A DNA stretch of 64,000 bases. Origin: an uncultured cyanobacterium. Its GTDB lineage: Bacteria; Cyanobacteriota; Cyanobacteriia; Pseudanabaenales; Pseudanabaenaceae. Location: contig OY969811.1 in the NCBI GenBank assembly GCA_963703315.1, forward strand, positions 2,688,001 through 2,752,000. Reading direction: 5' to 3'. The notes below the pieces were generated by a model. It was not told where the DNA came from, searched no databases, and worked only from the letters and a program-made list of their open reading frames with translations. A program made the position numbers and the translations under genes. Positions 43,718-60,068 of this stretch are shown here, piece by piece. Each line of letters opens with the position of its first letter. Position 1 is the first letter of the stretch.

Positions 43718-43816
43718 GCGATCGCCTAAAAATCACTCACAGTAATAGCGATCGCCTTTAGAAGATAGATTGTTGATGCGATCGCCTAGAAATCACGACT
43801 CACAGTAATAGCGATC
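43718..43816 (+). repeat. HIP1-anchored module A-B-A
   Basis: GCGATCGCCTAAAAATCACTCACAGTAATA, GCGATCGCCTTTAGAAGATAGATTGTTGAT, GCGATCGCCTAGAAATCACGACTCACAGTAATA. Confidence 0.9.
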
Positions 43817-43871
43817 AAACAATCCGTATTATTTCACTTCGCAAAGCTTTACCTTAACAAACAAAAAAGTT

Positions 43872-44396
43872 ATGAATATTATCCCTCTATTCAATGATAT
43901 AGGTGAAGAAGGCGCTGAGTTTTACTGCCTAGCGTATGCTCCCGTTTGGTATCACCAGACCAAGAAGCCTGCACTTCCATCGGCGTTAGGAATTTACTTT
44001 TGCTCACATAAAGATTTCACGCAATTTAGTCAACACAGCTTCGCAGAGGATGGTCATCGCCTCTCGTATTCGCGAGGCGATGATAAGCGCGATACGCTAG
44101 AGTTTGTATTCTTGTCCGTACTCTTAGAAAGTTCCGTTCACCCTGCCATGTGGAGGTTGTTTCCTCGTGCGAAGATTCCGCACAGTTTTCAGTCAGATAA
44201 GTACGAGCAGGCACGTCGTCAGCTTTGCTGTTTATTGTTTCACTTCCGAAGTCAGGAGATGGTGGCACGACTTACATCTGATTTGCCTAAGCAGCCATTG
44301 ATGACTTGTGACGAGTCCGCCAGACGAGTAGCTTTCGGCGACTTCACAGAAGAGGATAAAGAACTTGAGCAAGCTATCATAGAGGAGAATAATTGA
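43872..44396 (+). CDS. Hypothetical protein (accessory)
   Basis: 174 aa ORF between repeat modules. Confidence 0.55.
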   Translation: MNIIPLFNDIGEEGAEFYCLAYAPVWYHQTKKPALPSALGIYFCSHKDFTQFSQHSFAEDGHRLSYSRGDDKRDTLEFVFLSVLLESSVHPAMWRLFPRAKIPHSFQSDKYEQARRQLCCLLFHFRSQEMVARLTSDLPKQPLMTCDESARRVAFGDFTEEDKELEQAIIEENN

Positions 44397-44397
44397 T

Positions 44398-44437
44398 GCG
44401 ATCGCCTATAAATCACGGCTCACAGTAATAGCGATCG
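44398..44437 (+). repeat. HIP1-anchored module A
   Basis: GCGATCGCCTATAAATCACGGCTCACAGTAATAGCGATCG. Confidence 0.85.
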
Positions 44438-44498
44438 TCTTCACCAACCCTTTTAACAGATAGAGAATTGAGGCGATCGCTCAGAAAATTGATATTCG

Positions 44499-45216
44499 CT
44501 AATGAGGATCTTCTCTTGTTTGCAACTTCAACATTTCAGACTGAACATTCATCCCAATAACTAAAGCATCGCTCAGCAGAGAACTATACTGATTAGCTTG
44601 ATTTTGCACTTCTAAAGATTTTAAAGCTATCAAATTTTGCTCAATATTATTGAAAAGATCACGATGGCTACTTAAAAAACGACGATGCTCTCGGAGGATC
44701 TTTTCGGTTGTCAAGCCACAAATGAGGCTATCTCTAGTTAACTCAAGTGCCTGTAGGACATCCTCACGATGATTAAGATTTGCTGATTGATTACCGACAG
44801 ACTTTAAGCGATCGCACAGATCCATCGCTGCAATTACTTGATTATATTTATCGACCTCATCTAACAGATGGGACAAACCAGAACATATTTTTCGCTCTAA
44901 TCCAAGCAACAAGATTCCAACCTGCAAGCAGAATTAATACTAGCAGAAATACAAAAATGGCAAACCCAATCTGCTCTTGACGAGTATTTATGGATTTGCC
45001 AAGAGATTGAAATAGGAGAATGCTAATTGGCAAACTAAAAATCGCAATCAAAAATAAAGCGATCGCCTCACTCACCAAAAAAGGAACTAAGTATTTAGGA
45101 TTATTTAATAGAGAAATTCTATATACGCTGCCTATAAATAAATAGGTGATTTCCCTACCTGTGACCCTTGCTAGATCCTGTTCAGTAATCTGCAAATTCC
45201 TAATATCTGTTTGCAT
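44499..45216 (-). pseudogene. Membrane hypothetical gene split by a frameshift
   Basis: ORFs 44857-45216 and 44499-44927 join across an A5 run (44888-92): WIRAK/ICSGLSHLLDEV. Confidence 0.65.
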
Positions 45217-45237
45217 AATTGTTAGGCAATCTCAGAT

Positions 45238-45954
45238 TTATGTAAAAAACAAGCTTTTAATTGTATTCCATATTGCTAGATAAAAATTGCCTTCACGGGG
45301 ACGAAAAATATCAAATTTAGAACCAAAGGAACCGAAAAATGGTCTCAATGTCCAAGCCATCTGACTACCAACAAAAGCATAGAGTCCCAGCCAGAACTTG
45401 AGTATGGAGATACGAATTTTACGGTTTTTATCAATGGCTGTATCGTCAATAGCTAAGTCTTTATCTGCGATAATAGTTTCAGTTTTTGGTAGTAAAACCT
45501 GATAGAGAAAGTAAACTCCAATAACTCCTGTCAGAGTAAATATGGCAACATTTAACAAAAGGAAAAATGAATAATTGTCGGCTGTAATTAAGAAAAATAG
45601 AGTGACTGGTGCAAAACCAAATAGTAACGTACTAGTAATTGTTACTGCACAAAGCAAAATTGCCGCATACTGGCTAAGTGTAGTTTTTGAGCCGAAATAA
45701 ATATTAAAGAAATAGAGTGCTGGTAAACAAATCGCTAATGTGATTAGAAACAGGAATGGTAGCTTTGCGGCTGAAGAGACGATCTGCATCCAAGAGCTAA
45801 TCGCACCAATTAAACCACCATAAATTGCTAAAAATATAGAGCTACATATTAATAAGCCCACTATTTTGGTGTTAATTTTAACTCCATCATAAATTTCTTT
45901 GATGAACTGATCGCGATCGCTAAGTAAGGCAAGAAGAACCGAGAAAAATGGCAT
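45238..45954 (-). CDS. Conserved multi-TM membrane protein
   Basis: K.P.LFL.TL.ICLPALY and FVGSQ.AW.LRPF motifs. Confidence 0.75.
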   Translation of the reverse strand: MPFFSVLLALLSDRDQFIKEIYDGVKINTKIVGLLICSSIFLAIYGGLIGAISSWMQIVSSAAKLPFLFLITLAICLPALYFFNIYFGSKTTLSQYAAILLCAVTITSTLLFGFAPVTLFFLITADNYSFFLLLNVAIFTLTGVIGVYFLYQVLLPKTETIIADKDLAIDDTAIDKNRKIRISILKFWLGLYAFVGSQMAWTLRPFFGSFGSKFDIFRPREGNFYLAIWNTIKSLFFT

Positions 45955-46355
45955 ATGGATTTTAGATAAATTTCAAGATGGGAATGCTGGTAACTCACCT
46001 TACGCGGAACGTTTTAACCTCATAGCATTTCCTAATTAGGGTTTAGGGATTTGCCACTTTCTGGGTTTTATTCCCCCTCTCCTGCAAGGAGAGGATTTAG
46101 GGGAGAGGCTTACAAGGTTATCTGCGTAACATCGGGTAGTAATTTAGTGCAAAAACAGTTTACCTATGGAGTTTTGTAAAATTGTAATAGCAATTTACAT
46201 AATCTTTGCTCCACCGATTTAGACTAAGTAAATAGGCACTGTGTTCCTATATATTTTTTGTGGTGGAACTCATCTAAAGCTATTGACCACATTACAAGGC
46301 GATCGCTATTTGTTAAAAGTAAAGCTGCGATGCCCCCTCAACACCTAAAACATCA

Positions 46356-46453
46356 CGATCGCCTAAAAATCACTCACAGTAATAGCGATCGCCTTTAGAA
46401 GATAGATTGTTGATGCGATCGCCTAGAAATCACGAATCACAGTAATAGCGATC
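46356..46453 (+). repeat. HIP1-anchored module A-B-A
   Basis: Nearly identical to 43718-43816. Confidence 0.9.
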
Positions 46454-46649
46454 AAAATACATTTCTCTTCTGAGATTGTAGACCTTGTAGGGTTTGTTAA
46501 TGCAATGTAACGCACCCAAAATTTTATTTTTACACTTATTTAGCTGCTTTATATGACAGTTTATGGAATATTTATCTTTATACAAGTATTTATCCTAATA
46601 ATCTGCAAGATAATACATAGTTAGCAGTTCTCTATTAGAAATCAGAAGG

Positions 46650-47153
46650 ATGGATATGTCTAAAAAATGGAAGGGTCGGGAACAGCCAAATCTTGATCAT
46701 TTGATGTCACTTTTCTCGGATGACACCATTTCTGCATTCATTACTGGGCATCTAGTTATTGAATCTCTTCTTGTACAAATGATCGATCTAAAACTAGAAC
46801 ATCCTGATGAATTTGATACATTTAGTCTTAACTTCCCAGCAAAAACTAATCTGTGTAAGGCATTAGGATTAATTGATTCTGATATGACAAACTTTCTTCT
46901 TGAGATGAACACAATCAGAAATCGTTTTGCTCACAGGCTTGGATACAGCTTTTCCTTTGATGATGCGTTTAGCTTTGCTCAAGCTGCTGCCAAAGGGGGG
47001 ATAGACTTTTCAGATGATTCCATATACATGGATAAGGAGAATTCTGAAGAATGGTATGGCATCAAAGGAATTATTCAGGAAGTTTTTCAAAATACTGCTC
47101 AAGACCTCTCATTCATCATGGAGGAAAATGGTGGTGAATTTCAGTTTGGGTGA
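46650..47153 (+). CDS. Hypothetical protein in an integron-type gene cassette
   Basis: Preceded by GTTAGCAGTT (46620) and followed by its complement AACTGCTAAC (47168) starting an attC site. Confidence 0.75.
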   Translation: MDMSKKWKGREQPNLDHLMSLFSDDTISAFITGHLVIESLLVQMIDLKLEHPDEFDTFSLNFPAKTNLCKALGLIDSDMTNFLLEMNTIRNRFAHRLGYSFSFDDAFSFAQAAAKGGIDFSDDSIYMDKENSEEWYGIKGIIQEVFQNTAQDLSFIMEENGGEFQFG

Positions 47154-47170
47154 TCGAAATACTACTCAAC

Positions 47171-47246
47171 TGCTAACAATGGTGGTGCAGAAGATTGTTG
47201 GCAAAGTTGTAAAGTTTTTGGCAACCGCTGACCACAAACGTTCAGC
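47171..47246 (+). other. attC-like recombination site
   Basis: R'' TGCTAAC, 5 bp, L'' TGGTGCAG ... L' CTGACCA, 5 bp, R' GTTCAGC; extrahelical G. Confidence 0.78.
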
Positions 47247-47288
47247 TTCAGCGCACAGCTTTAACGCAAATTAAGTAAACTTTGACGT

Positions 47289-48059
47289 ATGAAACCTCAT
47301 GTATCTTTACTCGACAGAATTGAAATATTAAAGACGCAAAATCCAATTCAGGGAGCTTCGTATTACTGCGTCACATTGCTTGGCACTAAAGAGGGGAAAA
47401 TAAACCGATACTGCCAATCCGAGGTGTGCGGATACACTGATACAAAACCCCGCAGAGAAATTCGAGCAGGATGCTTGGTTGAGCCAACTAAGATGCGTGA
47501 TTTGTTTCAAGTGATTAAAGAACCGTCAGTTCTCGTGAATACATACAGTGACTTGTACGTATTTCTTCTGATTGGCGGTCATGGGATAATTGAGAAAAGT
47601 CTAGGTGAAAAGTACTTCGGTGATTTGTTGGCTGCGGAGGCGACAGTATTCTCCCATACAAAAGGACTTTTGCGGGTTCGTAGTTCGCCAAAAGCAATAA
47701 TTCAACACGCGCCAAGCAAGAAAACCCGAATGATAATCTTGAAACGTGATAATTATCGCTGTAAGGTATGTGGACGTTCACCAGAAAACCACGTTGATAT
47801 TGAATTGCACGTACATCATATACATCCTTGGGGAGAAGGCGGAGTAACTGAAGAAGATAACCTTATTACCCTTTGTAATACCTGTCATGACGGGCTTGAT
47901 CCCCATTTTGAGACAGACTTATTCCCTCTCATTGGTATCCAGCCTTATGTGAATATTATAAAAGCAGACCCTAACTACGTCGTTGGTGTTGTGAATTACC
48001 GTAAAGTATCCGTGAAAGCATATAAAACACTCGCCGAAAAAATGCCGCCACGCTCGTAA
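47289..48059 (+). CDS. HNH endonuclease domain protein
   Basis: RDNYRCKVCG...LHVHHI.P...GG.....NLITLC..CH. Confidence 0.85.
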   Translation: MKPHVSLLDRIEILKTQNPIQGASYYCVTLLGTKEGKINRYCQSEVCGYTDTKPRREIRAGCLVEPTKMRDLFQVIKEPSVLVNTYSDLYVFLLIGGHGIIEKSLGEKYFGDLLAAEATVFSHTKGLLRVRSSPKAIIQHAPSKKTRMIILKRDNYRCKVCGRSPENHVDIELHVHHIHPWGEGGVTEEDNLITLCNTCHDGLDPHFETDLFPLIGIQPYVNIIKADPNYVVGVVNYRKVSVKAYKTLAEKMPPRS

Positions 48060-48192
48060 ACAGTTCGATCGCCGATCTTGTAGTTAATGAAGTGCAACGC
48101 ACCTTATTTTTGTTCGTATTGACACTGACTTGAACACAGTTACAATTTTTTAGCTAGACTACTGAGTAATAACTTTCAATCTAGGCGCAGCC

Positions 48193-48405
48193 ATGCTAGA
48201 CACATCAACACTTGAGCAACGCTTGATAACCCTTGAACAAGTAGTTTTCGATCTTCAAAATAAATTTGAAAGTAAGCCTAGCTCCGACAATTGGCTTGAT
48301 AGACTCATAGGTTCCATCTCTGATGACTCAGCTTTTCTTGAAGCTCTAGAATATGGACGTGCATTTCGGCTGTCTGATAAACCTATTGACGACACTGACA
48401 AATAA
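48193..48405 (+). CDS. Putative VapB-like antitoxin
   Basis: 70 aa, directly upstream of a PIN toxin remnant. Confidence 0.6.
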   Translation: MLDTSTLEQRLITLEQVVFDLQNKFESKPSSDNWLDRLIGSISDDSAFLEALEYGRAFRLSDKPIDDTDK

Positions 48406-48407
48406 TC

Positions 48408-48560
48408 GTGAAATAGATGCGAAGTCAAAAAGTTCGTGTGTCTACAATGGACTTGAGAATTGCCGCGATCGCCATTTCTAACAACTTGGTATTACTTACC
48501 CGAAATACTGGAGACTTCAGTAAAGTTCCGAGTTTAGTAACCGAAGATTGGACAGTGTAG
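48408..48560 (+). pseudogene. VapC/PIN toxin remnant with internal deletion
   Basis: GTG AAA TAG then MRSQKVRVSTMDLRIAAIAISNNLVLLTRNTGDFSKVPSLVTEDWTV (PIN C-terminus only). Confidence 0.72.
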
Positions 48561-48666
48561 CGCTGAAGGGCTTCCTTACAGTTAGCAAATAGATAGATCA
48601 TTGAGGCGATCGTAAGATATCTCAAAGCTATAATGTGAGGTAGCAAAAGATCTTCAGGTTAGGGGT

Positions 48667-49017
48667 ATGACTACAGTATCAATCTTGCCAATATCTAGTG
48701 TTAGCGGTGAAAAATCCTATCGGGCGATCGCAGGAGATAAGCAGTGGGTTGGTAAAACTGCGGGGCAAGCTCTAGATGGATTAACTGCTCAGTTAGGTGA
48801 AGCTGATTTCAGTGCGCTGATCGTTATCAACAGTTTTCATCCAGATCTATTTTTTAGCGCCGATCAACAAAAACGGTTATCGGAGTTAATGAATTTATGG
48901 CGAGTAGCACGCGATCGGGGAGAAACATTACTACTGGAACAACAAGCAGAGCTAGATAATTTAGTTGATGCTGAACTAAGGGCAGCAACTGCACGAACAA
49001 CCGCCTTAATGCAGTAA
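48667..49017 (+). CDS. Hypothetical protein paired with an HNH gene
   Basis: 116 aa; GKTAGQALD, QQ.RL.ELM..WR. Confidence 0.65.
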   Translation: MTTVSILPISSVSGEKSYRAIAGDKQWVGKTAGQALDGLTAQLGEADFSALIVINSFHPDLFFSADQQKRLSELMNLWRVARDRGETLLLEQQAELDNLVDAELRAATARTTALMQ

Positions 49018-49025
49018 CTAAGTAT

Positions 49026-49241
49026 ATGAATCCCTATTACAGTGCGATCGCAGAACGTGCTAATCATCGTTGTGAATACTGCCATGCCCCAGAATTGGTT
49101 TTTAACTTCCCTTTTGAGGTTGAACATATCATCCCTCTCTCCCAGCAAGGGACAAATGACGAGTCGAATCTAGCTCTTGCCTGTCGATCCTGCAATCTTC
49201 GTAAAGGCACTCGTATTAGCGGCATTGATGCGATCGCCTAA
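49026..49241 (+). pseudogene. HNH endonuclease, probably 3'-truncated at a HIP1 module
   Basis: RA..RCEYC...EVEHIIP...NLALAC..CN.RKG; stop codon lies inside the repeat. Confidence 0.7.
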
Positions 49242-49298
49242 AACTCATGCCTTACAGTAATAGCGATCGCCTTGAGGAGATAGATTGTTAATGCGATT
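49230..49298 (+). repeat. HIP1-anchored module A-B
   Basis: GCGATCGCCTAAAACTCATGCCTTACAGTAATA, GCGATCGCCTTGAGGAGATAGATTGTTAAT. Confidence 0.85.
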
Positions 49299-49356
49299 AC
49301 CAAAGTAATTAAGCCATAATTGCATTACAAACCTAATTTATCTGGCTCGAATGTAT

Positions 49357-49881
49357 ATGAAAAATGAGAAGATCAAAGCAATACAAAATATCTTTAGTTC
49401 TAGACTCGACACGTTGAGCCATCTCTTAACAGTAGCAGAGAGCCATTTCGGAACCGATGTAGAGCCTATATTGCAGCGCCGTATAGCTCCCGATATGTTT
49501 CCCTTCGGTACACAAATTGTATTTACTTGCAATCAGCCCCGCAACTTTGCCTTGTGGTGCTTAGGACAGGCGGCGAATAACTTACCTCCCGACGTAGCAT
49601 CCCTAGATGAGGCGCGTACTCATATTTCATCTACAAAGGAACTGTTAGCAAGTATCAATGTTAGCGATACTATGCTTGCAGAGATCAAGCGGATTGAACT
49701 TGGAGAAGGTCTATACCTCGAACTATCTGGACTCTCATACGTGGATGATTTTCTGATGCCAAACTTTTACTTCCATTTGACCACAGCCTACGACATCCTG
49801 CGTATGGAAGGAGTACCCATAGGTAAGCACGATTTCATGATGCATTTGATACCTTTTGTAAAGCATCAAGGTAATTCATAA
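49357..49881 (+). CDS. DUF1993 (DinB-like) family protein
   Basis: R.APDMFP, PNFYFH.TTAY.ILR..GV.IGK.DF. Confidence 0.85.
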   Translation: MKNEKIKAIQNIFSSRLDTLSHLLTVAESHFGTDVEPILQRRIAPDMFPFGTQIVFTCNQPRNFALWCLGQAANNLPPDVASLDEARTHISSTKELLASINVSDTMLAEIKRIELGEGLYLELSGLSYVDDFLMPNFYFHLTTAYDILRMEGVPIGKHDFMMHLIPFVKHQGNS

Positions 49882-49894
49882 CATGGAGTAAAAA

Positions 49895-50377
49895 ATGTCA
49901 TTATCTGAACCAATTAGCATTCAGCAGCTTTTCGCCAATGACTTGGCACTTATGGAAGAATTATTAACTGTCTTTGGTGAAGCTTTTGAAGAAGTTGATA
50001 CCTATAGCTCATCTCGTCCAAATGGTGCTTATCTCCAGCGTTTACTAGGTCGCGATTATTTCATTGCACTTGCAGCGTTAAAAAATGGATCGGTGGTTGG
50101 AGGTCTAGCCGCATACGAACTCCAGAAGTTTGAGCAAGAACGGAGTGAAATTTATATTTATGATCTAGCTGTTGCCGCCGCACATCGACGGCAAGGCATT
50201 GCCACGGCATTAATTCAAGAATTAAAGAAGATTGCTGTAGCGCGAGGAGCTTACGTTGTTTTTGTGCAGGCTGACATTGGAGATGACCCTGCGATCGCAC
50301 TTTATACAAAGCTTGGTGTGCGTGAAGATGTGCTTCATTTTGACATTGCTGTTGACGATAATAGCGATCGCCTTTAG
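49895..50377 (+). CDS. AAC(3)-I family aminoglycoside N-acetyltransferase (GNAT)
   Basis: [16 protein letters not shown]...[11 protein letters not shown] and VQAD.GDDPA.ALYTKLG.RE.V.HFDI. Confidence 0.85.
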
Positions 50378-50401
50378 GAGATAGATTGTTGAGGCGATCG
50401 C
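50364..50401 (+). repeat. HIP1-anchored module B
   Basis: GCGATCGCCTTTAGGAGATAGATTGTTGAGGCGATCGC; supplies the stop codon of the GNAT gene. Confidence 0.85.
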
Positions 50402-50513
50402 GCTTGAATTAAAGTAGAATTTGCGGCAAATTTTTCCTCAATCAAATAATTAAACTGCAAGTGCTTTACAACTCCAAGCAATGTGTCTCTACGACCATTA
50501 AAATTCGCCTGTT

Positions 50514-50957
50514 TCAAATCTTCTGCTCACCTCGTTCAAGTTTGTTTTTCTGCAATTGATTTGGTTGTCTAGACCGATTTTTGCCAGCAATACGGAGAAG
50601 ACGAAGAAATTTTGGACATTCAAAATGGTTTGGCGCTTTGCAAACTGCCGCGTGACGAAGCCCATCACGCATTGAGGTCAGTTCCTTTATTTTCTTATCC
50701 AACTCCTCTGCTTTAGCTGAAAGCAGTGCAACATTAATTTCAACACCTTCAGGGGTAAACATTTCCGCGATCTCATCCAGAGAGAAACCAGCATTTCGTC
50801 CCAAAGCAATTAAAGCCAGCCGATCTATAACATCATCACTGAATTGACGACGTAGACCACTTCGACCATTGGACTGAATCAGCCCCTTCTCTTCGTAAAA
50901 GCGTAGCGTTGAGGCAGGCAACCCTGATGCCTTTGCAACTTCAGATATATCCATCAT
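50514..50957 (-). CDS. MerR-family transcriptional regulator
   Basis: ISEVAK.SG...STLRFYEEKGLI HTH; C-terminal C.AP.H..C. Confidence 0.9.
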   Translation of the reverse strand: MMDISEVAKASGLPASTLRFYEEKGLIQSNGRSGLRRQFSDDVIDRLALIALGRNAGFSLDEIAEMFTPEGVEINVALLSAKAEELDKKIKELTSMRDGLRHAAVCKAPNHFECPKFLRLLRIAGKNRSRQPNQLQKNKLERGEQKI

Positions 50958-50976
50958 GTCACTTTGCAATTAACAC

Positions 50977-51007
50977 TTGACTTCAAGTTAACTTGAACTT
51001 GTATTGT
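50977..51007 (+). promoter_or_regulatory. MerR-type promoter and operator
   Basis: TTGACT-N19-TATTGT with dyad TTCAAGTTAACTTGAA in the spacer. Confidence 0.85.
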
Positions 51008-51039
51008 AGCCTCATACAAGATTTTATGAGCTAAAAACT

Positions 51040-52505: not shown

Positions 52506-52589
52506 GGTTAAATCCTTTAAGTAATTACATGAAGTTTAGAAGTCTAGGCATTTGATCTAGGCGCTAATACCTAATATACGATAAAAATT

Positions 52590-52630: not shown

Positions 52631-52722
52631 TTTATATTTGCTAAATGATGATTGAATGAAATATGAATAACCTAACCCCGCAGTCTTCTTTAACTCGATT
52701 AAATTTTTGTTAGCCTTTATCT

Positions 52723-53181
52723 ATGGAAACAACTCCTAAAAACATCAACCTCGAACCAGAACTAGCCCTAGCTCTTGATTTAGACTTGGTGCGTCAACAG
52801 CTAGCAACTCGCGCCCAAAATCTGGCGATTCCCCAAATCGAAAAACATTTATTTCTATGTGCTGACCAAACCAAACCCCTCTGCTGCCAAAAGGAAGTGG
52901 GATTGCAAGCATGGGACTATCTAAAACGACGCATCAAGGAACTCAACTTAGAAGCAAAAATCTTTCGGACTAAGACTAACTGCTTGCGTGTATGCGATCG
53001 CGGACCGATTTTATTAGTCTATCCAGATGGTGTTTGGTATCATTCGGCAACCACAGAGATTTTAGAAAGGATACTCCAAGAGCATATTATTGGTGGCAAC
53101 ATCGTTATAGATTACGCCTTTGTCTCACCCCAAAAGGGTTCCTCGACTTCGGCGGGAAACCCATCCTGTAAAACGCAATAA
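52723..53181 (+). CDS. Thioredoxin-like [2Fe-2S] ferredoxin
   Basis: [20 protein letters not shown]...VYPDGVWY. Confidence 0.88.
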
Positions 53182-53210
53182 GATACAGCGCTTTGCGCTA
53201 AATTAAAATA

Positions 53211-53261
53211 CAAAGAAATTTTTGAAAGCGCGGCAGAGCCGCGCTTTCAAAAATTTCTTTG
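53211..53261. repeat. Intergenic long-hairpin repeat (24-bp stem)
   Basis: Perfect inverted repeat around GCGCGGC-AGA-GCCGCGC. Confidence 0.8.
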
Positions 53262-53296
53262 GACTACTTCAAGCCTCAACAGCCTGTAGCTATATC

Positions 53297-54652
53297 TTAT
53301 TGCGAGAGTGAAACTTTGCGAGAGTCGAATAACTGAAGTACGGCACTTTTAATCATTGACATCACATGGGGATCACAGCTTGCAATTAGCTCTTCGCGGG
53401 GCAGGTTGCCTTTAAAAAACTCTTTGGAAAGTCTGAGCATTCTTTGCATTTCAGGAAATCCAAGAGATTTCACCATAAAGGTTGCCACAGGAGAATTCCG
53501 CACATCGTAGCTAGAATCAACGCTTCGTCCCTTATCTAATAATTCTAATACTTCCGCTTCGATAGGCGTTGACGGCTGGTGTGGCACTTCAATTTGTGGC
53601 AAGAACTGTTCTAAGCCATCTACGGGATTATCTGATGGTAATTCCCCCATCATTGTTGAGAGTGAAATATCACGTCCAATGCGTAATGATAGTGCTTCTA
53701 GAATGGCGATCGAGGTTAACTTTGTACCTAAGTACAGTCTTGACACTTCCAGATTGTGATTAGTTTGGGCAAGTAGCTTGTAATAGTTTTTTTGATCAGG
53801 TTCATCACGATAACGTCGGAAAACGATTTCAGGCGAAAGGAAGTTCATAAAGCTTTCCATTTTTTGCATGGAAACTCGATAACCATGCACACTATAGGAA
53901 TTAGAATTTTTAAGATCGTGATTTGTTTCAGGAATTAAATTCCAAGTATTGTTGAGAAAAAGCGATGAATTTGGACTAGCAAAGTTTTTTACATCGCGGT
54001 TAGATAGGCGGACGGCTCTCTTGACGATTTCAGCAATATCTTGATCACCCCAGCCAAATTGAAATACTTCATTGGCATTAACTAAACGACCAAATAGGAG
54101 ATCAGAACAAGTTAGACCAGAATCTAGCTGCGGACGAAATGGAATAGTCGCTTCAATACAAGCTGTAATCTCGGCAAGCTTGTTGAGAGGCAACATATTT
54201 TCTAGGACTTTGATCGCAATGATGGCACTCAGAAATTCATTTTGCCCAGACATCGGTAATAAGGGCTGTCCATGCTCAAAGCCAAATAGCATCGATACCA
54301 TTTTGAAAATGATATCTTCTTGCAGTTCAGGGGCTTCGAGAATTACCAGTTGCTCACGGTCTTCTTTGATGTAGGGAGAAATGTAGCGACTGATATTGAC
54401 ACTAATACCTTGATCAACCTGTACATACACCAGATCATGAAATATTGCTGATATGACTTCGATCGCGTCTCCCCCTTCACCCACCTCAAAAATATGGTTG
54501 GGTGTGTGAAACGATCGCCAAGGACCAGTCATCGTTTGAATGATCAAATTGGAGATTTTAGTCAACTGTTCTTGGTCAACATGACCTTGCAAGTCGGCGA
54601 TCGCTTGCGTGAGGCGGTCTAGACATTTCTGTTTATCCGTTGCAGTACTCAT
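53297..54652 (-). CDS. Conserved hypothetical protein (possible HD-fold hydrolase)
   Basis: FHT..H and FHD motifs; start at ATG 54652. Confidence 0.65.
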   Translation of the reverse strand: MSTATDKQKCLDRLTQAIADLQGHVDQEQLTKISNLIIQTMTGPWRSFHTPNHIFEVGEGGDAIEVISAIFHDLVYVQVDQGISVNISRYISPYIKEDREQLVILEAPELQEDIIFKMVSMLFGFEHGQPLLPMSGQNEFLSAIIAIKVLENMLPLNKLAEITACIEATIPFRPQLDSGLTCSDLLFGRLVNANEVFQFGWGDQDIAEIVKRAVRLSNRDVKNFASPNSSLFLNNTWNLIPETNHDLKNSNSYSVHGYRVSMQKMESFMNFLSPEIVFRRYRDEPDQKNYYKLLAQTNHNLEVSRLYLGTKLTSIAILEALSLRIGRDISLSTMMGELPSDNPVDGLEQFLPQIEVPHQPSTPIEAEVLELLDKGRSVDSSYDVRNSPVATFMVKSLGFPEMQRMLRLSKEFFKGNLPREELIASCDPHVMSMIKSAVLQLFDSRKVSLSQ

Positions 54653-54718
54653 CCAATCATCTCCACATTTAACTTCTTCGTATTTACAGCAGCGTTTCTC
54701 CACTCATTTCAACCACAA

Positions 54719-54814
54719 CTATAGCGTTTCACAGCTTAGTGAAGTACGGGATTGTTTCCCCGCCTTCGGCGGGGAAACAATCCTCTGTATCTCGCTTGCT
54801 TGAAAAGCGCTATA
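54719..54814. repeat. MITE-like element (same family as 49-144)
   Basis: CTATAGCG...TAGTGAAGTACGGG, hairpin, CTCGCTTGCTTGAAAAGCGCTATA. Confidence 0.75.
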
Positions 54815-55014
54815 TGCTAGTAATGATCTAGATAAATTGTGGTAATTGTTTAATGGCTTGACATTATTTGGGTGATTTTTATTAAATCGTAAAGTTTTAA
54901 AGACTCTGTATTGCATGAAACTTAAACTGACCTGTGTGTTTAACTAATGAGATTTGCTGTTTTAGCTCGGATGGGGATCTGATCAGGATAGTTAGCTCTT
55001 TACACTGCACATTC

Positions 55015-55491
55015 TTACATATTAATGGGATTCTCTGAAGATGCCAGAAAGTCTAATATGATCTGACGATGGCTGGGGGCAAGTGGACGATCCTGTAATA
55101 TGCGACGGGAATAGTGACTACCTTGGATAATCTCTTGCGGTGAAAGCAAATCCATGTCGCATCCTTCATTGAGTTCGAGCATATTTAGCCCTACATCTAA
55201 ACAACCATAAAATACATATCTAATTACTTGATCTCCTAAATAGCTGCGAAAAAATCTAATTTCTTGAGGAATATACCCGATTTCTTCTTGAAGTTCTCGG
55301 AGCATACCCATCTCAGGTTTTTCATTTATTTCTAGATGTCCGCCAAACATTGTCCAAACCCCCGGATGTACGATAGTTGGGATGTCATCACGCAGTTGCA
55401 TCAAAAATTGGTTTTGATGCTGCAAAATGGCGATCGCTACTGATCGGATAGTCTCTTCAGCGTTAACCACATCTAGCTCGTTATCCATCAT
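55015..55491 (-). CDS. NUDIX hydrolase
   Basis: QLRDD, GG..E..E......RELQEEIG Nudix box. Confidence 0.88.
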   Translation of the reverse strand: MMDNELDVVNAEETIRSVAIAILQHQNQFLMQLRDDIPTIVHPGVWTMFGGHLEINEKPEMGMLRELQEEIGYIPQEIRFFRSYLGDQVIRYVFYGCLDVGLNMLELNEGCDMDLLSPQEIIQGSHYSRRILQDRPLAPSHRQIILDFLASSENPINM

Positions 55492-55590
55492 TAATTAAGT
55501 TGGAGATTATGTAAATCGTAAGTTTGGCTTGAAATATATTAGTACTTACGCAAAGTAAAAAGGCTCAATATAGCAATACTTGGTTAAGTT

Positions 55591-55641
55591 AGCCCAAAAG
55601 ATTAATAGCGGCGCGAAGCGCCGCTATTAATCTTTTGGGCT
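55591..55641. repeat. Intergenic long-hairpin repeat (24-bp stem, GAA loop)
   Basis: Perfect inverted repeat. Confidence 0.8.
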
Positions 55642-55769
55642 TTATGGAGGCATTTGCGCCGCAAATCTCCAGATGTCATTAATGTTGAGTTTGCGATTAG
55701 CTTTATACAAACTTAGAGTGCGATCGCTGTTACCATCAGTGATAATTTCTGGAAAGGAGTAAGCATTCG

Positions 55770-56732
55770 ATGTCCGCAGTCAATCAGCAAGAAGTTTTGG
55801 CAAGCTTTAAGGTTTTGGTAAGCATGGCAAAAGCCGACGGCAAATTGCTCGAAGAAGAGTTTGCCAGTCTCGCCGATACTTTTGAAGAAATTCATCTGCC
55901 TGAAGGTATGACCGTCGATAGCCTGTTGAATGAAGATGAGCAACCAATCGACACATTACTTTCACAAATTACCAGTGATATCGCACAGGAGATGGTTTAT
56001 CAGTCTGCCTACGCGATGGCAAATATCGATGGAGAGTGTAGTTCCGAAGAAAAAGAACTGTTAGACAAAATTGGGACAACTTTTACCAGTTCAAAACTTT
56101 GGGGCAAACAAGAATGGCTAGAAACCCTAGAGCGCCGTTCTACAAAATCAGCGATCGCTGCACAAATCAGTCAAATTGATGATCCTGAGAAACGGGCGAT
56201 GGAGGTCGAAAATGCGATCACCGATGCTTGTTTTCTTAATGCAGTTTTAGGCGCATTCCCGATCCCCGGAATTGCGATCGCCTTTGATATGTTGATCTAC
56301 TGGAATCAACTCGATCTCGCCCAAACCATTGGTCAAAGCTGGGGCTACGATCGCGACAATGAAAATCTTCGCAAAGCCTTATTTGGAAGCTTAGGGATCA
56401 CAGGAACCCGCATTGCTGTTAGCAATTTAGCCAAGCTCGTTCCTGTCTTTGGCATGGTAGTCGGCGCGACTACTGCTTATGCAAGTACATGGGCGCTAGG
56501 CAAAGTTGCTAATGAATACTTTGCCTCAGGTGGCGAGATGGATGCTTTTAGCTTACGTCAAGCCTTTAAGCAAGCGAAGAAAGAGGGTGAAGCCTTGTAT
56601 AAAACCAAAGCTGATGAAATTGCTGAGAAGAAAAAAGCGATCGAGCCTCAAGTGCAACTGCTCAATGAGGAACTGAAAGCTGGCAGTATTACGCCTGAAG
56701 AATATCAGGAAAAATTGAAAAATCTACTTTAA
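55770..56732 (+). CDS. TerB-like + DUF697-like domain protein
   Basis: MAKADG...EE and ANIDG....EEK; PIPG..FD, LAKLVPVFG. Confidence 0.72.
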   Translation: MSAVNQQEVLASFKVLVSMAKADGKLLEEEFASLADTFEEIHLPEGMTVDSLLNEDEQPIDTLLSQITSDIAQEMVYQSAYAMANIDGECSSEEKELLDKIGTTFTSSKLWGKQEWLETLERRSTKSAIAAQISQIDDPEKRAMEVENAITDACFLNAVLGAFPIPGIAIAFDMLIYWNQLDLAQTIGQSWGYDRDNENLRKALFGSLGITGTRIAVSNLAKLVPVFGMVVGATTAYASTWALGKVANEYFASGGEMDAFSLRQAFKQAKKEGEALYKTKADEIAEKKKAIEPQVQLLNEELKAGSITPEEYQEKLKNLL

Positions 56733-56766
56733 AAAAGAGAGGACGCATAGCGTCCTCTCTTTTTTT
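56731..56766. terminator. Bidirectional terminator
   Basis: A-run, GAGAGGACGC-ATA-GCGTCCTCTC, T-run. Confidence 0.75.
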
Positions 56767-57209
56767 TAGAAACCACCAACCCGAATACCTGCGCCTAAAA
56801 CTACGAATAAGACAGCTAGACTGGTCACTCCCACAATGTGATAAGCCAAAGAGTTTAAAGTCTCTTTAGTGAGATTAGGAATAATGAAAAATCGCGCATG
56901 AATTGCTAAGGCGATCGTTCCTAATAGGAGTAATAGTTTGATGCCGATATAAGTGGAGAGATAGGAATCAAATGCTAGAAAACTCTCGAAATTAGGAAAA
57001 TAAGTCCATGTGAGCCATAGCCCTGTGATCACCTGTAATAGCAGGGCTGCGAGTCCAAATCCTTCAAAATGTTCTTCAAATTGATGAATGCGATCAGGAT
57101 CGCGATGTTTGAGAGCTTGAGGTAAAACGGTTGCTGCTAGTACCAGATGCCCACCTGTCCAGACAGTGGCTCCTAAAATATGCAAAACAACTAAGATTTT
57201 AAATAACAT
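56766..57209 (-). CDS. CopD-family membrane protein
   Basis: LH.LGA.VW.GG, four TM segments. Confidence 0.75.
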   Translation of the reverse strand: MLFKILVVLHILGATVWTGGHLVLAATVLPQALKHRDPDRIHQFEEHFEGFGLAALLLQVITGLWLTWTYFPNFESFLAFDSYLSTYIGIKLLLLLGTIALAIHARFFIIPNLTKETLNSLAYHIVGVTSLAVLFVVLGAGIRVGGF

Positions 57210-57368
57210 GGGGTTATGTCAAGATTTGTTGACTTATGGTTATAGAATTGGCGATCACTTTAAGATTTGGTAAAAATAGATACAAAAATAATTGCATTTT
57301 TATAAGTCTACTTTGGATTTTGACAAAGGGCGATTGATTTCACCAACTTGCATCAAGAGGCGAAAGCT

Positions 57369-57614
57369 ATGAATACAGCGATTGATTGGGATGAAGTATT
57401 TGAATATCCACCCAGAACCATCGTAGAACTCAAAGCAAAGCCAGATGTTTTATACGAGATTGATTGGTATGAGGCGATGATGGTTCCACCGATCTGGTTA
57501 GTGGGCGATCCGCGTCCTCGCTATCCCCACGAATTGCGAATCGTGTCGCGCCTAAAATTACAACTTTGTGATTTAACATTTTGTGATTTAGCGGCGCAAC
57601 CTGCCTTGGTTTAG
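57369..57614 (+). CDS. Small conserved hypothetical protein
   Basis: MMVPPIWL.GDPRPRYP.EL motif. Confidence 0.6.
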   Translation: MNTAIDWDEVFEYPPRTIVELKAKPDVLYEIDWYEAMMVPPIWLVGDPRPRYPHELRIVSRLKLQLCDLTFCDLAAQPALV

Positions 57615-57628
57615 GTTTCAGAAATATA

Positions 57629-57669
57629 GCGATCGCCTAAAAATCAAGACTCAAAGTAATAGCGATCGC
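57629..57669 (+). repeat. HIP1-anchored module A
   Basis: GCGATCGCCTAAAAATCAAGACTCAAAGTAATAGCGATCGC. Confidence 0.85.
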
Positions 57670-57760
57670 CAAAGTCGCACCACCGCTAATATCTCCTACC
57701 TTCCCAAAGTTGAAGTAGGGTCTTGGATATAGAATGTATTTAGTGCTACAGCCTATAGCT

Positions 57761-58018
57761 ATGACTATTAAAGAACAAATTATTCAAGAACTTGATCGCA
57801 TCCCTGAGTCTTATCTGGAGAAAGTGCTTAGTTTTTTGTATTGTTTAGAAACTCCATCGACTCATGATGTTGAGCAGTTAAGCAAGGCGGAAGCAATTAT
57901 CCAAAATGGATTAAATACTGCGCTATCCAAGCCAAAGCGATCGTCATTGGAAATCTGGGCAGAATTTGCATCTATTCGCAATAGAATTTCTGAAAGTATT
58001 GTTGATATGATCGCCTAG
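57761..58018 (+). CDS. Antitoxin-like (DUF2281-like) small protein
   Basis: MTIKEQIIQEL..IP...L..VL.FL; stop codon inside the repeat. Confidence 0.55.
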   Translation: MTIKEQIIQELDRIPESYLEKVLSFLYCLETPSTHDVEQLSKAEAIIQNGLNTALSKPKRSSLEIWAEFASIRNRISESIVDMIA

Positions 58019-58076
58019 AAATTACGACTCAAAGTACAAGCGATCGCCTTTAAGAAATAGATTGTTGATGCGATCG
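58009..58076 (+). repeat. HIP1-anchored module A-B
   Basis: GATCGCCTAGAAATTACGACTCAAAGTACAA, GCGATCGCCTTTAAGAAATAGATTGTTGAT. Confidence 0.8.
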
Positions 58077-58197
58077 TGGGTTGTTGATGTTTGAGTTGGA
58101 GGCGATCAATTTTTGATAAGTTGTTTCAGGCGATCTCTATCAAGCCTATTATTGACAAGTGCGTTACTATTATATTAATTGCTCTAGGTAATTGATT

Positions 58198-58674
58198 ATG
58201 AAATGGGAAGAAGTTTGTGAGAATAAACAGCTACAAGATTTACCATTCAAAATTGAATTAAACAAGTGGGGGCAAATCGTAATGAGTCCAGTCAAAATCA
58301 AGCATTCTTTTCACCAAGGAAGACTCCAGCGTTTATTGGAGTCTTTGTTGAGTAATGGGGAAGTGATGCCAGAATGTGCGATCGACACAACAGACGGTGT
58401 TAAAGTTGCTGATGTTGTCTGGTGTTCTGCGGAAAGATTTGACAAAATTCAGGATGAAGTTTCAGCATCTATTGCCCCAGAAATTTGTATAGAAGTTAAA
58501 TCTATTGGGAATACTTTGGGTGAAATGGAATTCAAGAAAAAGTTGTATTTTGAAGCCCAAGCGCTTGAGGTATGGCTATGTGATGAAAAAGGTAAAATAA
58601 GATTTTATAATGAGCAAGGGGAATTAGAGCAATCTTTGTTAGTCCCTGATTTCCCGAAGCAAATTAAACGATAA
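58198..58674 (+). CDS. Uma2 family (DUF820) endonuclease-fold protein
   Basis: G.IVMSP, VADV.W, APEICIEV.S, Y....A.EVW. Confidence 0.88.
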   Translation: MKWEEVCENKQLQDLPFKIELNKWGQIVMSPVKIKHSFHQGRLQRLLESLLSNGEVMPECAIDTTDGVKVADVVWCSAERFDKIQDEVSASIAPEICIEVKSIGNTLGEMEFKKKLYFEAQALEVWLCDEKGKIRFYNEQGELEQSLLVPDFPKQIKR

Positions 58675-58723
58675 ATTATATTGCTTGTGTTTTAGTTGAT
58701 CGCCTATTCTCTCAAACAAAACA

Positions 58724-58795
58724 GCGATCGCCTTGAGAAGATTGATTGTTAATGCGATCGCCTAAAAATCATAACTCACAGTATATAGCGATCGC
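58724..58795 (+). repeat. HIP1-anchored module B-A
   Basis: GCGATCGCCTTGAGAAGATTGATTGTTAAT, GCGATCGCCTAAAAATCATAACTCACAGTATATA. Confidence 0.85.
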
Positions 58796-58934
58796 ATTGT
58801 CTATATGGAAGATGGTAAATTGATGCCAAATGTTGAAGCTTGTCATTAGAGCGATTGCGATAGCCTACATTAAACTCTTTAGAAAATGAATTGTTGAGGC
58901 GATCGCGAAGTCAAGAAGTTGATAGGCGATCAGG

Positions 58935-59018
58935 GTATAACAAATCATTGAAGCAAGCCAACAGCTATGATTTAGGCAAACTAAAAATGTCTACTCCTGT
59001 TCAATTTAGCCGTTAAGC
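58935..59018 (+). other. attC-like site
   Basis: R'' GTATAAC, 5 bp, L'' ATTGAAGC ... L' GTTCAAT, 6 bp, R' GTTAAGC. Confidence 0.72.
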
Positions 59019-59031
59019 TTTAGGAATACAT

Positions 59032-59649
59032 ATGAGCTTTTTCGATGCATCAGCACTGTTTGTAATCATGGTAACGCTCGCCATGATTCCTAGTACGAGT
59101 GTTGCCTTGGTGATTACACGCTCAGCCACATTAGGCTTTTCAAATGGGGCTGCCGTCTCAATGGGCATTGTACTAGGGGATTTGATTTTCGTATCGTCGG
59201 CAATTTTTGGACTAACGGCTCTGTCGGAACTGATGGGAACCTTCTTTTTAGTAATTAGATACGCTGCTGGCGTTTACCTTATTTGGTTTGGTGTAACCTT
59301 GATCAGAAGTAGAGCGAAAGCGTACTCTCTTCAATCCTATAGCGCTCGGGGCGGAATCGTTGCTAGTTTTTTTGCGGGTCTTTTTGTAACACTTGGTGAT
59401 GTTAAGGCTATATTTTTCTATGCGAGTTTATTTCCAGCATTTGTAGAATTATCGGCACTCAAAACACTAGACATTTTTGTGATTCTATTTGTAACTACAA
59501 TCACAGTTGGTGGTGTCAAGTTGACCTACGCCTTGATCGCCAAGAAAGTGGTGATTATGAGCAAAGGACTAGCAATTGAAAAAGAAGCTAAGTTGGCATC
59601 AGGTGCTCTTATGGTTGGCACTGGAACTTATCTCATTGCAAAAGTTTAA
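59032..59649 (+). CDS. LysE/RhtB family translocator (gene cassette)
   Basis: P......VI.RS...G...G.....G...GD; YL.W.G; flanked by attC-like sites. Confidence 0.88.
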   Translation: MSFFDASALFVIMVTLAMIPSTSVALVITRSATLGFSNGAAVSMGIVLGDLIFVSSAIFGLTALSELMGTFFLVIRYAAGVYLIWFGVTLIRSRAKAYSLQSYSARGGIVASFFAGLFVTLGDVKAIFFYASLFPAFVELSALKTLDIFVILFVTTITVGGVKLTYALIAKKVVIMSKGLAIEKEAKLASGALMVGTGTYLIAKV

Positions 59650-59713
59650 CAAAGCATTGTAACGGACAAGCCTCTGAATGCGTCATTATACTGAAACTAT
59701 ACGACCGTTAAGG
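59644..59713 (+). other. Degenerate attC-like site
   Basis: R'' GTTTAAC overlapping the LysE stop, R' GTTAAGG; L boxes pair poorly. Confidence 0.55.
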
Positions 59714-59821
59714 GTGTCTGTTTCTAGTCGAGATTAGGTAAGCAAAAATGGTTGGCTTTGTTGTTGAGTACAGAGTAGTTATCTGCGATCACCAAGCATA
59801 AGTAATTGATAAGTGATCGCA

Positions 59822-59909
59822 GCATAACAAAACATTGGAGCGGATAGAAGCGTGATATTTTGGTGTTGAGTTGAAGGCGATCTATTGTCGCTCAATTCAG
59901 CCGTTATGC
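59822..59909 (+). other. attC-like site
   Basis: R'' GCATAAC, 5 bp, L'' ATTGGAGC ... L' GCTCAAT, 6 bp, R' GTTATGC; extrahelical G. Confidence 0.8.
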
Positions 59910-60028
59910 TCAATCGCGAAGTCCGTAAGTGAATGGTTTCTAGCCAAGATTGAGCAAGCAAATATCACCGACTTCGATGTTCAGTTCCGAGAAGTTATCG
60001 GCGATCGCAAAAACAAATAATTATTTAA

Positions 60029-60068
60029 CGATCGCCTAGAAATCATAACTCACAGTAATAGCGATCGC
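60029..60068 (+). repeat. HIP1-anchored module A
   Basis: CGATCGCCTAGAAATCATAACTCACAGTAATAGCGATCGC. Confidence 0.85.

Follow-up and report, generated by a model that had tools for sequence, protein, structure and literature searches.

The window analysed here is a stretch of 64,000 nucleotides from an uncultured cyanobacterium of the family Pseudanabaenaceae (contig OY969811.1, positions 2,688,001 to 2,752,000), whose 4.565-Mb genome is referred to below as G000. It carries ten loci composed of short repeat units bounded by HIP1, all present at the positions and with the make-up that an earlier note had given: 43718 (A-B-A), 44398 (A), 46355 (A-B-A), 49230 (A-B), 50364 (B), 52590 (A), 57629 (A), 58007 (A-B), 58724 (B-A) and 60028 (A), with an additional partial B-class unit at 58877. 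That note had placed them in three clusters; they form two arrays instead, 43432-52630 and 57629-60068, because 46456-49230 is cargo too. Its assignment of core-like genes to the space between clusters fails in part, since a conserved gene pair at 44857-45954 sits within array 1. Array 1 and the insertion sequence at its left end are organized as follows.

42366-43431, plus strand: IS1-like insertion sequence with a 9-bp target duplication, splitting the first cassette (a RelE toxin-antitoxin pair)
43432-43706, plus strand: 3' half of relE, from cassette family F0, which is shared more widely than any other (7 copies in 7 genomes)
43718-43816, plus strand: module A-B-A, its first A short by 3 bp; 99% identity to the 46355 module
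43872-44396, plus strand: cargo ORF of 174 aa without Pfam or NCBIfam match
44398-44480, plus strand: unit A, then unit C
44857-45954, minus strand: two genes enclosed in the array, both kept at other places by relatives (77-89%)
46355-46453, plus strand: module A-B-A
46620-47246, plus strand: integron-type cassette with an R'-like box at 46620, a 167-aa ORF (weak DUF4145) and an attC-like site at 47171-47246
47289-48059, plus strand: HNH-domain gene 3' of the attC-like site, without an attC of its own
48066-49228, plus strand: antitoxin with the remnant of a broken PIN toxin, 116-aa ORF and HNH gene
49230-49297, plus strand: module A-B
49351-50377, plus strand: DUF1993 gene and AAC(3)-I acetyltransferase gene, the 3' end of the latter fused to the next unit
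50364-50480, plus strand: unit B and recurrent leader E, found 3' of B ahead of unrelated cargo
50514-51849, divergent: merR/tauE pair; a 94% identical block in G009 begins there at a B unit
51864-52505, minus strand: HSDR_N-like gene cassette
52590-52630, plus strand: unit A, right end of array 1

The 5' half of the split RelE cassette and its B unit now adjoin an opposite-facing IS1-like copy (G000:2619450-2619894), a position that an inversion of about 111 kb would explain. Within the integron-type cassette, the R'' of the attC-like site is the exact complement of R' at 46620, and the HNH gene of 48066-49228 is truncated at the next unit through a microhomology of a few bases. The HSDR_N-like cassette recurs over 725 bp at 89.7-91.6% identity in six genomes from outside the genus, of which two are Nostoc. 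An empty site sought at the left flank of array 1 was not found, between-species synteny there being too poor. In all eight relatives with a match to the right-flank gene, no unit stands upstream of it. A promoter scan returned 24 sites, fewer than the shuffle mean of 43.5, and none at leader E; therefore, no portable promoter is claimed.

Array 2 is organized as follows.

57629-57669, plus strand: unit A, where array 2 begins on the left; the target HIP1 of the empty site corresponds to the first HIP1 of this unit
57734-58018, plus strand: antitoxin-like ORF truncated at the next unit; G005 and G023 have the full cassette with a PIN toxin
58007-58076, plus strand: module A-B
58192-58674, plus strand: cassette of family F7 with a Uma2-family gene, present in G032 as well
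58724-58795, plus strand: module B-A
58866-58933, plus strand: partial B/C unit, then a D-type unit
58935-59909, plus strand: three attC-like sites around lysE (58935, 59643 and 59822, the second degenerate and identified by eye)
60001-60068, plus strand: units D and A, in that order, closing array 2 on the right

The segment with lysE and its attC-like sites is probably a captured fragment of an integron array. The last HIP1 of array 2 meets the chromosomal flank 5' of an iron-sulfur repair gene, and the same site is a lone HIP1 in four relatives (G009, G013, G020 and G454) and holds different cargo in G002; the empty-site motif had no matches in metagenome contigs. Comparison thus shows that an array can start from a lone HIP1 on the chromosome, which comes to stand at both of its edges, and that the inner cargo is swapped later while the outer A units are retained.

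Composition and conservation of the units

Units A and B are two members of a larger set that includes C and D. All are HIP1-bounded spacers with a whole HIP1 at both sides and periods of 33 bp (A), 30 bp (B), 41-42 bp (C, a long form of B) and 27 bp (D), so that each joint consists of HIP1 and an unstructured spacer of 19-34 nt; the HIP1-bounded length of 30-33 bp given earlier for A and B is borne out. A profile scan of G000, with units called at 20 bits or more, returned 14 A units, 11 of them in the window, and 11 B units, seven of them in the window. All 18 window copies lie on the plus strand and neither unit occurs in window positions 1-43717, as had been described. Calling is sharp: among 2010 HIP1-bounded segments, no A score lies between 5 and 15 and no B score between 4 and 16. 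Unit types alternate in 252 of 261 pairs of in-module neighbours, and units in the same module are hardly closer to each other than units from different genomes (4.35 vs 4.79 mismatches). Across genera there is a single consensus with a Poisson-like spread of 2-3 mismatches, and decayed copies are almost absent from G000.

An Rfam scan of 42000-62000 brought no family near its gathering score, and folding and covariation analysis of A, B, AB and BA (241 A and 140 B sequences) revealed neither conserved structure nor compensatory covariation, pairing within units being essentially that of HIP1 with HIP1. A CRISPR array was rejected, since A and B are both conserved across genomes, unlike a constant repeat with unique spacers.

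Cargo and distribution among cyanobacteria

The genes between units include toxin-antitoxin pairs, AAC(3)-I, regulators, defence genes and captured attC cassettes. The mobile cargo that the note had seen bracketed by units is confirmed by the RelE, HNH, DUF1993, MerR, TauE, Uma2 and LysE calls, and its aac(3)-I-like gene matches AAC(3)-I with 239 bits against an NCBIfam cut-off of 200. Cassettes are often regulator-enzyme pairs in either orientation; among array ORFs of at least 90 aa from a simple ORF caller, 276/397 follow the unit strand and 121/397 run opposite to it.

Units are present in 27 of 36 same-genus (Pseudanabaena) genomes and in 26 of 184 other cyanobacteria, reaching five other families and being richest in Pseudanabaena; they are mainly chromosomal, with copies on plasmids as well. 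An A match is absent from nine of the 36 same-genus genomes, the single-contig G006 among them, and unit A had no matches in viral contigs. In the stretches examined, the units are clustered and co-oriented, in line with the earlier proposal. Cargo is shared end to end at 88-99% identity, Nostoc included, and among 18 shared segment families with 47 copies no neighbour is repeated. Full-length cassettes with units on both sides recur across orders with changed neighbours, and one metagenome contig holds four adjacent cassettes, each about 98% identical to one in a different genome. By these comparisons, a cassette extends from HIP1 to HIP1 with fixed ends, lies between co-oriented A and B/C/D units and moves between species and orders as its neighbours change.

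Such arrays resemble integron remnants lacking the integrase gene (CALIN; Cury et al. 2016, PMC4889954), and the units might be attC equivalents of decayed arrays served by IntI in trans. Consistent with this are the attC-like sites (in the window, three by an ad hoc rule and one by eye; in the arrays, eight on the unit strand and none on the other in 365 kb), the AAC(3)-I gene and toxin-antitoxin pairs typical of integron cargo, and an IntI match above cut-off in 17 of 37 genus genomes. The units themselves, however, have no R/L boxes, no covariation and only HIP1-HIP1 pairing; G000 has no IntI (the best TIGR02249 match, E 1.9e-7, is far below cut-off); units occur in 13/17 genomes with IntI and in 15/20 without it, the five unit-richest genomes being without full IntI; and the 121 opposing ORFs are foreign to this scheme, which makes it extremely improbable. 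The attC-like sites of the window fold no better than shuffles and are cargo, not joints, and some of the cargo is apparently integron-derived.

Breakpoints and the piece that moves

The units are far from random in strand: 474/474 were co-oriented, a larger count gave 582/582 on a single strand per stretch, and metagenome loci gave 325/325. Cross-genome homology ends within 20 bp of a unit in 196/547 cases, against 76/1121 for ORF ends and about 2% at random, in stretches that were picked for holding units and among related-genome pairs that are non-independent; breakpoints thus coincide with units much more often than ORF ends do, and 351/547 ends lie more than 20 bp away. For pairs of at least 97% identity, 44 of 45 ends are within 20 bp of a unit (raw ends, duplicates among them).

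Cargo is 91-96% identical up to HIP1, the unit 83%, against a background of 78-80%, and the sequence beyond it 22-46%. Unit type is retained in 113 of 128 junction pairs. Cassette ends are base-precise; in 98% pairs the last mismatch falls at variable points near HIP1, and the crossovers are at the cargo-side HIP1 or no more than about 20 bp from it. From these profiles, the mobile piece is the segment from HIP1 to HIP1, the flanking unit apparently being left behind as a rule. Several window genes are cut at microhomologies, and at a distance from units many junctions likewise consist of microhomology truncations. Faster mutation or conversion of the unit than of the cargo could also account for the low unit identity.

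The same distribution might arise if the units were small selfish or neutral SDR5-like repeats piling up in plastic regions, their delimitation of cargo being only apparent, the product of deletions from one HIP1 to another and of chance insertions. A repeat that inserts at HIP1 is known in SDR5 (PMC4390886, PMC5861425), excision between flanking HIP1 copies is known (PMC13756078), and a few lone units do exist in G000. That account is nevertheless quite unlikely: G000 offers 8231 HIP1 copies, yet 18 of its 25 unit copies are packed into 17 kb, and no opposite-facing unit was found in any stretch; one lone A (G000:1990933) is followed by a leader resembling, by eye, those recurrent after other modules; unit-bounded full-length cassettes recur across orders with new neighbours; and tandem units are not recent duplicates of one another.

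Candidate enzymes

The window had been described as free of a dedicated recombinase. It does contain two IS110 recombinase genes and an IS1-like transposase gene, and the claim stands in that none of them targets the units. Among G000 enzyme candidates there is no IntI, resolvase or serine recombinase; present are one Y1 transposase, seven IS110 copies and two tyrosine-recombinase ORFs, one an HTH fusion without a clear catalytic set by eye. The IS110 bridge-recombinase target was rejected as well, as six of the seven copies abut another hairpin repeat, the seventh is 6 bp away from a plain HIP1 and none is at a unit. A dif-like motif has five matches in G000 at one mismatch, none at units.

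A dedicated site-specific recombinase would cut HIP1, use the unit interiors as binding arms and pass through circular intermediates, in the manner of IntI/attC or XerCD/pdif. The single cross-genus consensus with almost no decay in G000 suggests a constrained site, the cassette ends are base-precise, the HIP1 spacings of 30, 33 and 41-42 bp approximate three and four helical turns (arithmetic only), and site-specific recombination at HIP1 in PCC 7002, as cited by Elhai 2015 (PMC4390886), also counts in its favour, as does a tyrosine recombinase ORF of G000 that is conserved across the genus. We regard this possibility as rather doubtful: apart from IS transposases and a single reverse transcriptase, 150 cargo proteins and 113 proteins in or around other-genus arrays include no recombinase, G000 has no serine recombinase, the IS110 copies occupy a different palindrome, the crossover points vary inside the unit, and the conserved tyrosine recombinase also occurs in G006, a genome without an A match.

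A few pairs of flanking units match exactly or almost exactly (window 43718/46355; G000:974146/976144), which fits circle integration better. The sequencing runs compared with the window (X1 to X4) consisted of contigs. X1 agrees with the window at nearly every letter and may be the source of it. Unit-to-unit joints in X3 were ruled out as evidence of circles, as they belong to other organisms' arrays at 90% likeness, and the stretches left uncovered in X2-X4 carry no weight.

A model of integrase-free exchange

The units had been proposed as shared joints for swapping gene modules, and comparison supports this part of the proposal, while the recombination step and its enzyme are what we infer. 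We consider it fairly probable that the units are joints of an integrase-free gene-cassette system that spans several groups of cyanobacteria, in which host HIP1-assisted homologous exchange uses them as pairing arms. Incoming DNA, from natural transformation or a plasmid, would pair with a resident module through same-type units flanking the cargo, and the host's general recombination machinery together with HIP1 would carry out the exchange at the cargo-side HIP1 or up to about 20 bp away. Orientation, unit type and A/B alternation would be preserved in this way, whereas the unit allele would not. The units B, C and D may act between A units as cassettes without cargo, and loss of cargo may leave long ABAB runs behind. 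New genes would arrive by cruder events, namely microhomology joins, integron pieces and insertion sequences, and a newcomer would become mobile once flanked by two units.

The genes dprA and comEC and C5 methylases are present. By textbook standards, pairing arms of 30-60 bp that are about 80% identical offer RecA little length, and therefore an additional helper would be needed under homologous exchange. In PCC 7002, homologous HIP1 is reported to boost integration up to 7-fold, and more than 100-fold if methylated (Kamoku and Nielsen, 10.1101/2024.09.10.611283). Taken more broadly, it is quite probable that HIP1 serves as the crossover core and that the A, B, C and D spacers license a minority of HIP1 copies as landing pads; any gene that comes to lie between two spacers, a eukaryote-type actin included, would then enter an inter-order cassette pool through integrase-free exchange in several families.

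Relation to known systems and significance

The BIMEs of REP/BIME mosaics are alternating short modules that form hairpins, are dispersed and are tied to an HUH transposase; the present units share the short alternating modules. In the minimal mobile elements of Neisseria, transformation swaps cassettes between conserved flanks and the arms are the flanking genes; the cassette replacement is alike, whereas the arms here are repeated 30-bp joints. A literature search for a Prochlorococcus island repeat yielded no matching publication.

Like integrons and CALIN as described in the available account, these arrays are co-oriented and consist of short accessory cassettes in which toxin-antitoxin, resistance and defence genes are frequent; distant hosts have cassettes in common, and some apparently true attC cassettes are embedded in the arrays. 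Unlike integrons, the joint is HIP1 with an unstructured spacer rather than a folded attC, IntI is absent from G000 and unlinked to units across the genus, regulator-enzyme pairs lie in either orientation, and joints are stacked as ABAB runs. The dif modules of Acinetobacter, in the part of the report available (PMC13141974), likewise have no in-element integrase, two alternating site types, toxin-antitoxin and resistance cargo and presumed host machinery; a pdif site, however, has a XerC arm, a 6-bp spacer and a XerD arm in alternating directions, while the units here are direct with an 8-bp palindrome at the centre. The alternating-orientation rule of pdif is excluded for units by their single strand in every stretch.

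SDR5 of Nostocaceae, also a very short cyanobacterial repeat tied to HIP1, has 21 nt, inserts between HIP1 bases 3 and 4 and, in the portions of these sources available, is reported only there and with no known function (PMC4390886, PMC5861425, PMC13756078). This description sets it apart from the present units, which have 30-42-bp periods, are clustered, co-oriented and gene-delimiting and extend beyond Nostocaceae. HIP1-mediated excision (Gupta 1993, Robinson 1997 and Akiyama 1998, as cited in PMC4390886 and PMC13756078) and HIP1-enhanced transformation involve recombination at or aided by HIP1 and are the likely biochemical basis; they are described as single-site laboratory events, and spacer units, arrays and a shared pool are absent from the available descriptions.

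No published description of a HIP1-jointed cassette system was found in a literature search. Cassettes reordered in distant cyanobacteria with no integrase nearby point to an undescribed gene-swapping system; new in kind would be its site architecture and cassette pool, whereas in what it does it matches integrons and dif modules. What HIP1 is for has been an open question for 30 years in the available parts of the literature (PMC5861425, PMC13756078), and in the arrays HIP1 forms the base-precise boundary of genes recently moved between distant cyanobacteria. If the reading is true, integrons and dif modules would be joined by a third cassette system, and HIP1 would have a concrete function; once confirmed, it would provide a route for resistance, defence and stress genes in freshwater cyanobacteria that integron finders miss, and possibly a native landing-pad tool for cyanobacterial engineering. 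The minimal sequence to which the arrays point is A-marker-A against a resident A-B-A.

Repeat units and their arrangement

Units are short spacers bounded by HIP1, the common cyanobacterial palindromic octamer; adjoining units share one HIP1 and form modules, and the genes between modules are their cargo. All ten modules claimed in the earlier note were recovered with the make-up described. Unit A has the consensus GCGATCGC CTAGAAATCACGACTCACAGTAATA GCGATCGC with a period of 33 (243 copies), and unit B GCGATCGC CTTTAGGAGATAGATTGTTGAT GCGATCGC with a period of 30 (149 copies). Spacer C (41-42 bp), consisting of B plus an 11-12-nt addition, and spacer D (27 bp) also recur. The host genome, G000, a single contig of 4.565 Mb with 8231 HIP1 sites, contains 14 A and 11 B units at >=20 bits, of which 18 of 25 lie at window 43718-60068, all 18 on the + strand; positions 1-43717 hold none, agreeing with the absence noted for the first 43 kb.

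Co-orientation, likewise claimed earlier, extends well beyond the window, although stretches with one unit are co-oriented trivially: 474 units face one way and 0 the other in 15 genus genomes (32 stretches, 29 with units, picked for units or as orthologous sites), 582 versus 0 with other genera included (52/55 stretches), and 325 versus 0 in 45 metagenome loci, some overlapping. A and B alternate in 252 of 261 neighbour pairs within modules of the same 32 stretches. A units differ at 4.35 bases within a module versus 4.79 between genomes, and distances from the common consensus are Poisson-like (mean 3.1 in the genus, 2.3 in other genera), together indicating that ABAB runs are not local duplications, while the Poisson-like distances point to a single consensus across orders. 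The units display no compensatory covariation, folding being essentially HIP1 with HIP1. Decayed copies are almost absent from G000. That the units are selfish repeats is unlikely.

In many arrays, unrelated cargo is separated from the preceding unit B by a conserved leader of some 80 bp (window 50402-50480); 12 of 213 leaders fall in one cluster, and a promoter scan did not detect the leader as a sigma-70 promoter. Many arrays also have a recurrent trailer ahead of D-A whatever the cargo (window 59717-59790, 59938-60008), perhaps left over from the end of an old gene.

Distribution among cyanobacteria

Scanning relatives, as the earlier note proposed, with up to 3 mismatches (reversed-pattern control, 0 everywhere) revealed the A pattern in 27 of 36 same-genus genomes, at up to 47 copies each. 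Its absence from the other nine counts against generality; four of these are less than 90% complete, and one, G006, is a single contig. Among 400 genomes drawn from the phylum, the pattern occurs in 26 of the 184 that belong to the same class but another genus (five families, 1-10 copies) and in 0 of 215 from other classes, both denominators being summed from the results table; 24 single representatives of other families yielded none. Exact unit matches include Nostoc, Crocosphaera, Tychonema and Microcoleus records (among 80 of 93 stretches listed), and named unit-bearing records are mostly Pseudanabaena among the matches listed. Modules are also found on 8 of 72,556 plasmids, four from Pseudanabaena and four from Planktothrix, and in 48 metagenome stretches, with 0 matches in viral contigs.

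Cargo as cassettes

Judged by sequence comparison, the units are a real feature and so is a pool of cassettes, in which cargo moves as segments running from one HIP1 to another. The 174 segments between modules (median 1.2 kb) form 145 families, of which 18 are shared (47 copies), with no upstream or downstream neighbour ever repeated. The cargo proteins (150 scanned of 158 selected) include toxin-antitoxin pairs, GNATs, regulators with oxidoreductases, Uma2, Macro, Fic and AAA nucleases, as well as one IS transposase; no recombinase was found among these 150. Within the same genome pair, cargo identity exceeds core-gene identity: for G005, 90-93% in cargo versus 74-79% in core genes, and for G003, 98% over a 705-bp block versus 73-76%. 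The HSDR_N cassette of the window shares 725 bp with six other-genera genomes at 89.7-91.6%, and each of four neighbouring cassettes at one locus (L241) matches, at about 98% identity, a cassette from a different genome and meets a unit at either end.

Homology breakpoints fall at units more often than the controls do, and a majority lie elsewhere. With units masked, and 104 of 777 ends dropped because homology resumes past the module, 196 of 547 unique ends lay within 20 bp of a unit and 351 elsewhere, compared with 76 of 1121 ORF ends and 2.2% of random positions, the latter computed on unfiltered ends. Among metagenome-locus pairs, the share of ends that coincide with a unit in one or both partners climbs with identity, from 206/291 (90%) to 96/112 (95%) and 44/45 (97%). 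Of the rows at 97%, 17 duplicate one contig and 1 pairs two near-identical contigs; without them the count is 26/27, and these ends are not independent because about six cassette comparisons lie behind them. Several genes of the window, among them the second HNH gene, aac(3)-I and the 57734 ORF, are truncated at 3-5-base microhomologies to the unit tail.

The alignment of orthologous loci suggested earlier revealed empty and filled states of array 2 (57629-60068), compared over the stretch that separates an iron-sulfur repair gene from the gene region whose end lies near 57600. Four genomes (G009, G013, G020, G454) hold one HIP1 there, G006 has lost part of HIP1, and G000 carries A-cargo-D-A over 2.4 kb. 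G002 has the outer units of G000 with different cargo, and G007 has the right junction in common with G000, its cargo and left flank differing. The left A of G000 and that of G002 have the same rare base, which suggests that a single founding insertion later had its interior replaced.

Exchange point and mechanism

In cargo pairs about 94% identical (59 and 43 junction pairs), identity stays at 91-96% in every 25-bp step until HIP1 is reached, is 83% within the next unit, against a unit background of 80% (A) and 78% (B), and is 22-46% past it; unit type is conserved in 113 of 128 junction pairs. Between 98%-identical cassettes, flanking units differ at 2-7 positions, the cargo-nearest mismatch lying at variable points and a rare allele sometimes still being shared. 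The profile and the variable mismatch points fit a model in which same-type units would pair and exchange would occur near the HIP1 facing the cargo; alternatively, units may change faster than cargo. HIP1-assisted homologous exchange is probably the mechanism. G000 encodes dprA, comEC and three full C5 methylases.

Two near-identical flanking unit pairs in G000 better match circle integration. Cassettes driven by a dedicated site-specific recombinase are a rather unlikely alternative. G000 has no IntI and no serine recombinase, and the 113 ORFs scanned, of 117 around other-genera arrays, include no integrase, the four omitted being HSDR_N gene copies. In a single case, a Tn3 element carrying a tyrosine recombinase is situated some 8 kb from a Pseudanabaena plasmid array. 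An ORF at G000:4367588-4368844 fuses an N-terminal helix-turn-helix-like part to a weak tyrosine-recombinase match.

The arrays function like integrons and dif modules, yet fail the defining tests of integrons, dif modules and SDR5. Eight attC-like sites in 365 kb, a minority, indicate integron pieces among the cargo. Descent of the arrays from a decayed integron is highly improbable; within the genus, 13 of the 17 genomes that have IntI above the cut-off carry units, versus 15 of the 20 that do not. No title or opening abstract found on HIP1-linked repeats or cassettes in cyanobacteria describes the units or arrays, which Elhai et al. 2008, its supplements or subscription papers could contain.

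Individual cassettes and neighbouring elements

Genes beside units and insertion sequences
L204:12461-13678, - strand, intronless eukaryote-type actin gene, 772 bits versus beta-actin (G064, Microcoleus record)
L205:4881-6383, 501-aa reverse transcriptase, between A units, other genus
L211:9393-10847, mCpol protein, between A units, other genus
L209:3376-5175, GmrSD-Schlafen fusion, between A units, other genus
L204:11275-12081, DUF4238 protein, between A units, other genus
L225:6024-7247, gene annotated elongation factor Tu, abutted by unit A, Planktothrix plasmid
Window 26872-29582, two IS110 copies back to back, enclosing two short hairpin repeats
Window 42366-43431 and G000:2618383-2619449, opposite-facing IS1-like copies, each with half of relE

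The reverse transcriptase, mCpol, GmrSD-Schlafen and DUF4238 genes are candidate defence cassettes. The L204 actin is the lone gene of a 1.4-kb cassette, with an A-D module on one side and an A unit on the other. G061 carries a second actin between A units (L212:9272-10342), which is more diverged and shares no DNA similarity with the L204 gene. Island-borne actin has already been reported from Microcystis (PMC3254629).

Several families of intergenic hairpin repeats (50-90 bp, both orientations), scattered over window 11518-63694, are not related to the units. The family enclosed by the two IS110 copies is abutted by 6 of 7 IS110 copies in the genome and looks like the IS110 target, which differs from the units. 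The relE gene of the array's first cassette is split by an IS1-like element with a 9-bp duplication, and its halves are now about 111 kb apart, next to the opposite-facing copies, a layout that fits an inversion of roughly that length; the B unit at G000:2619860-2619894 is part of that first cassette.
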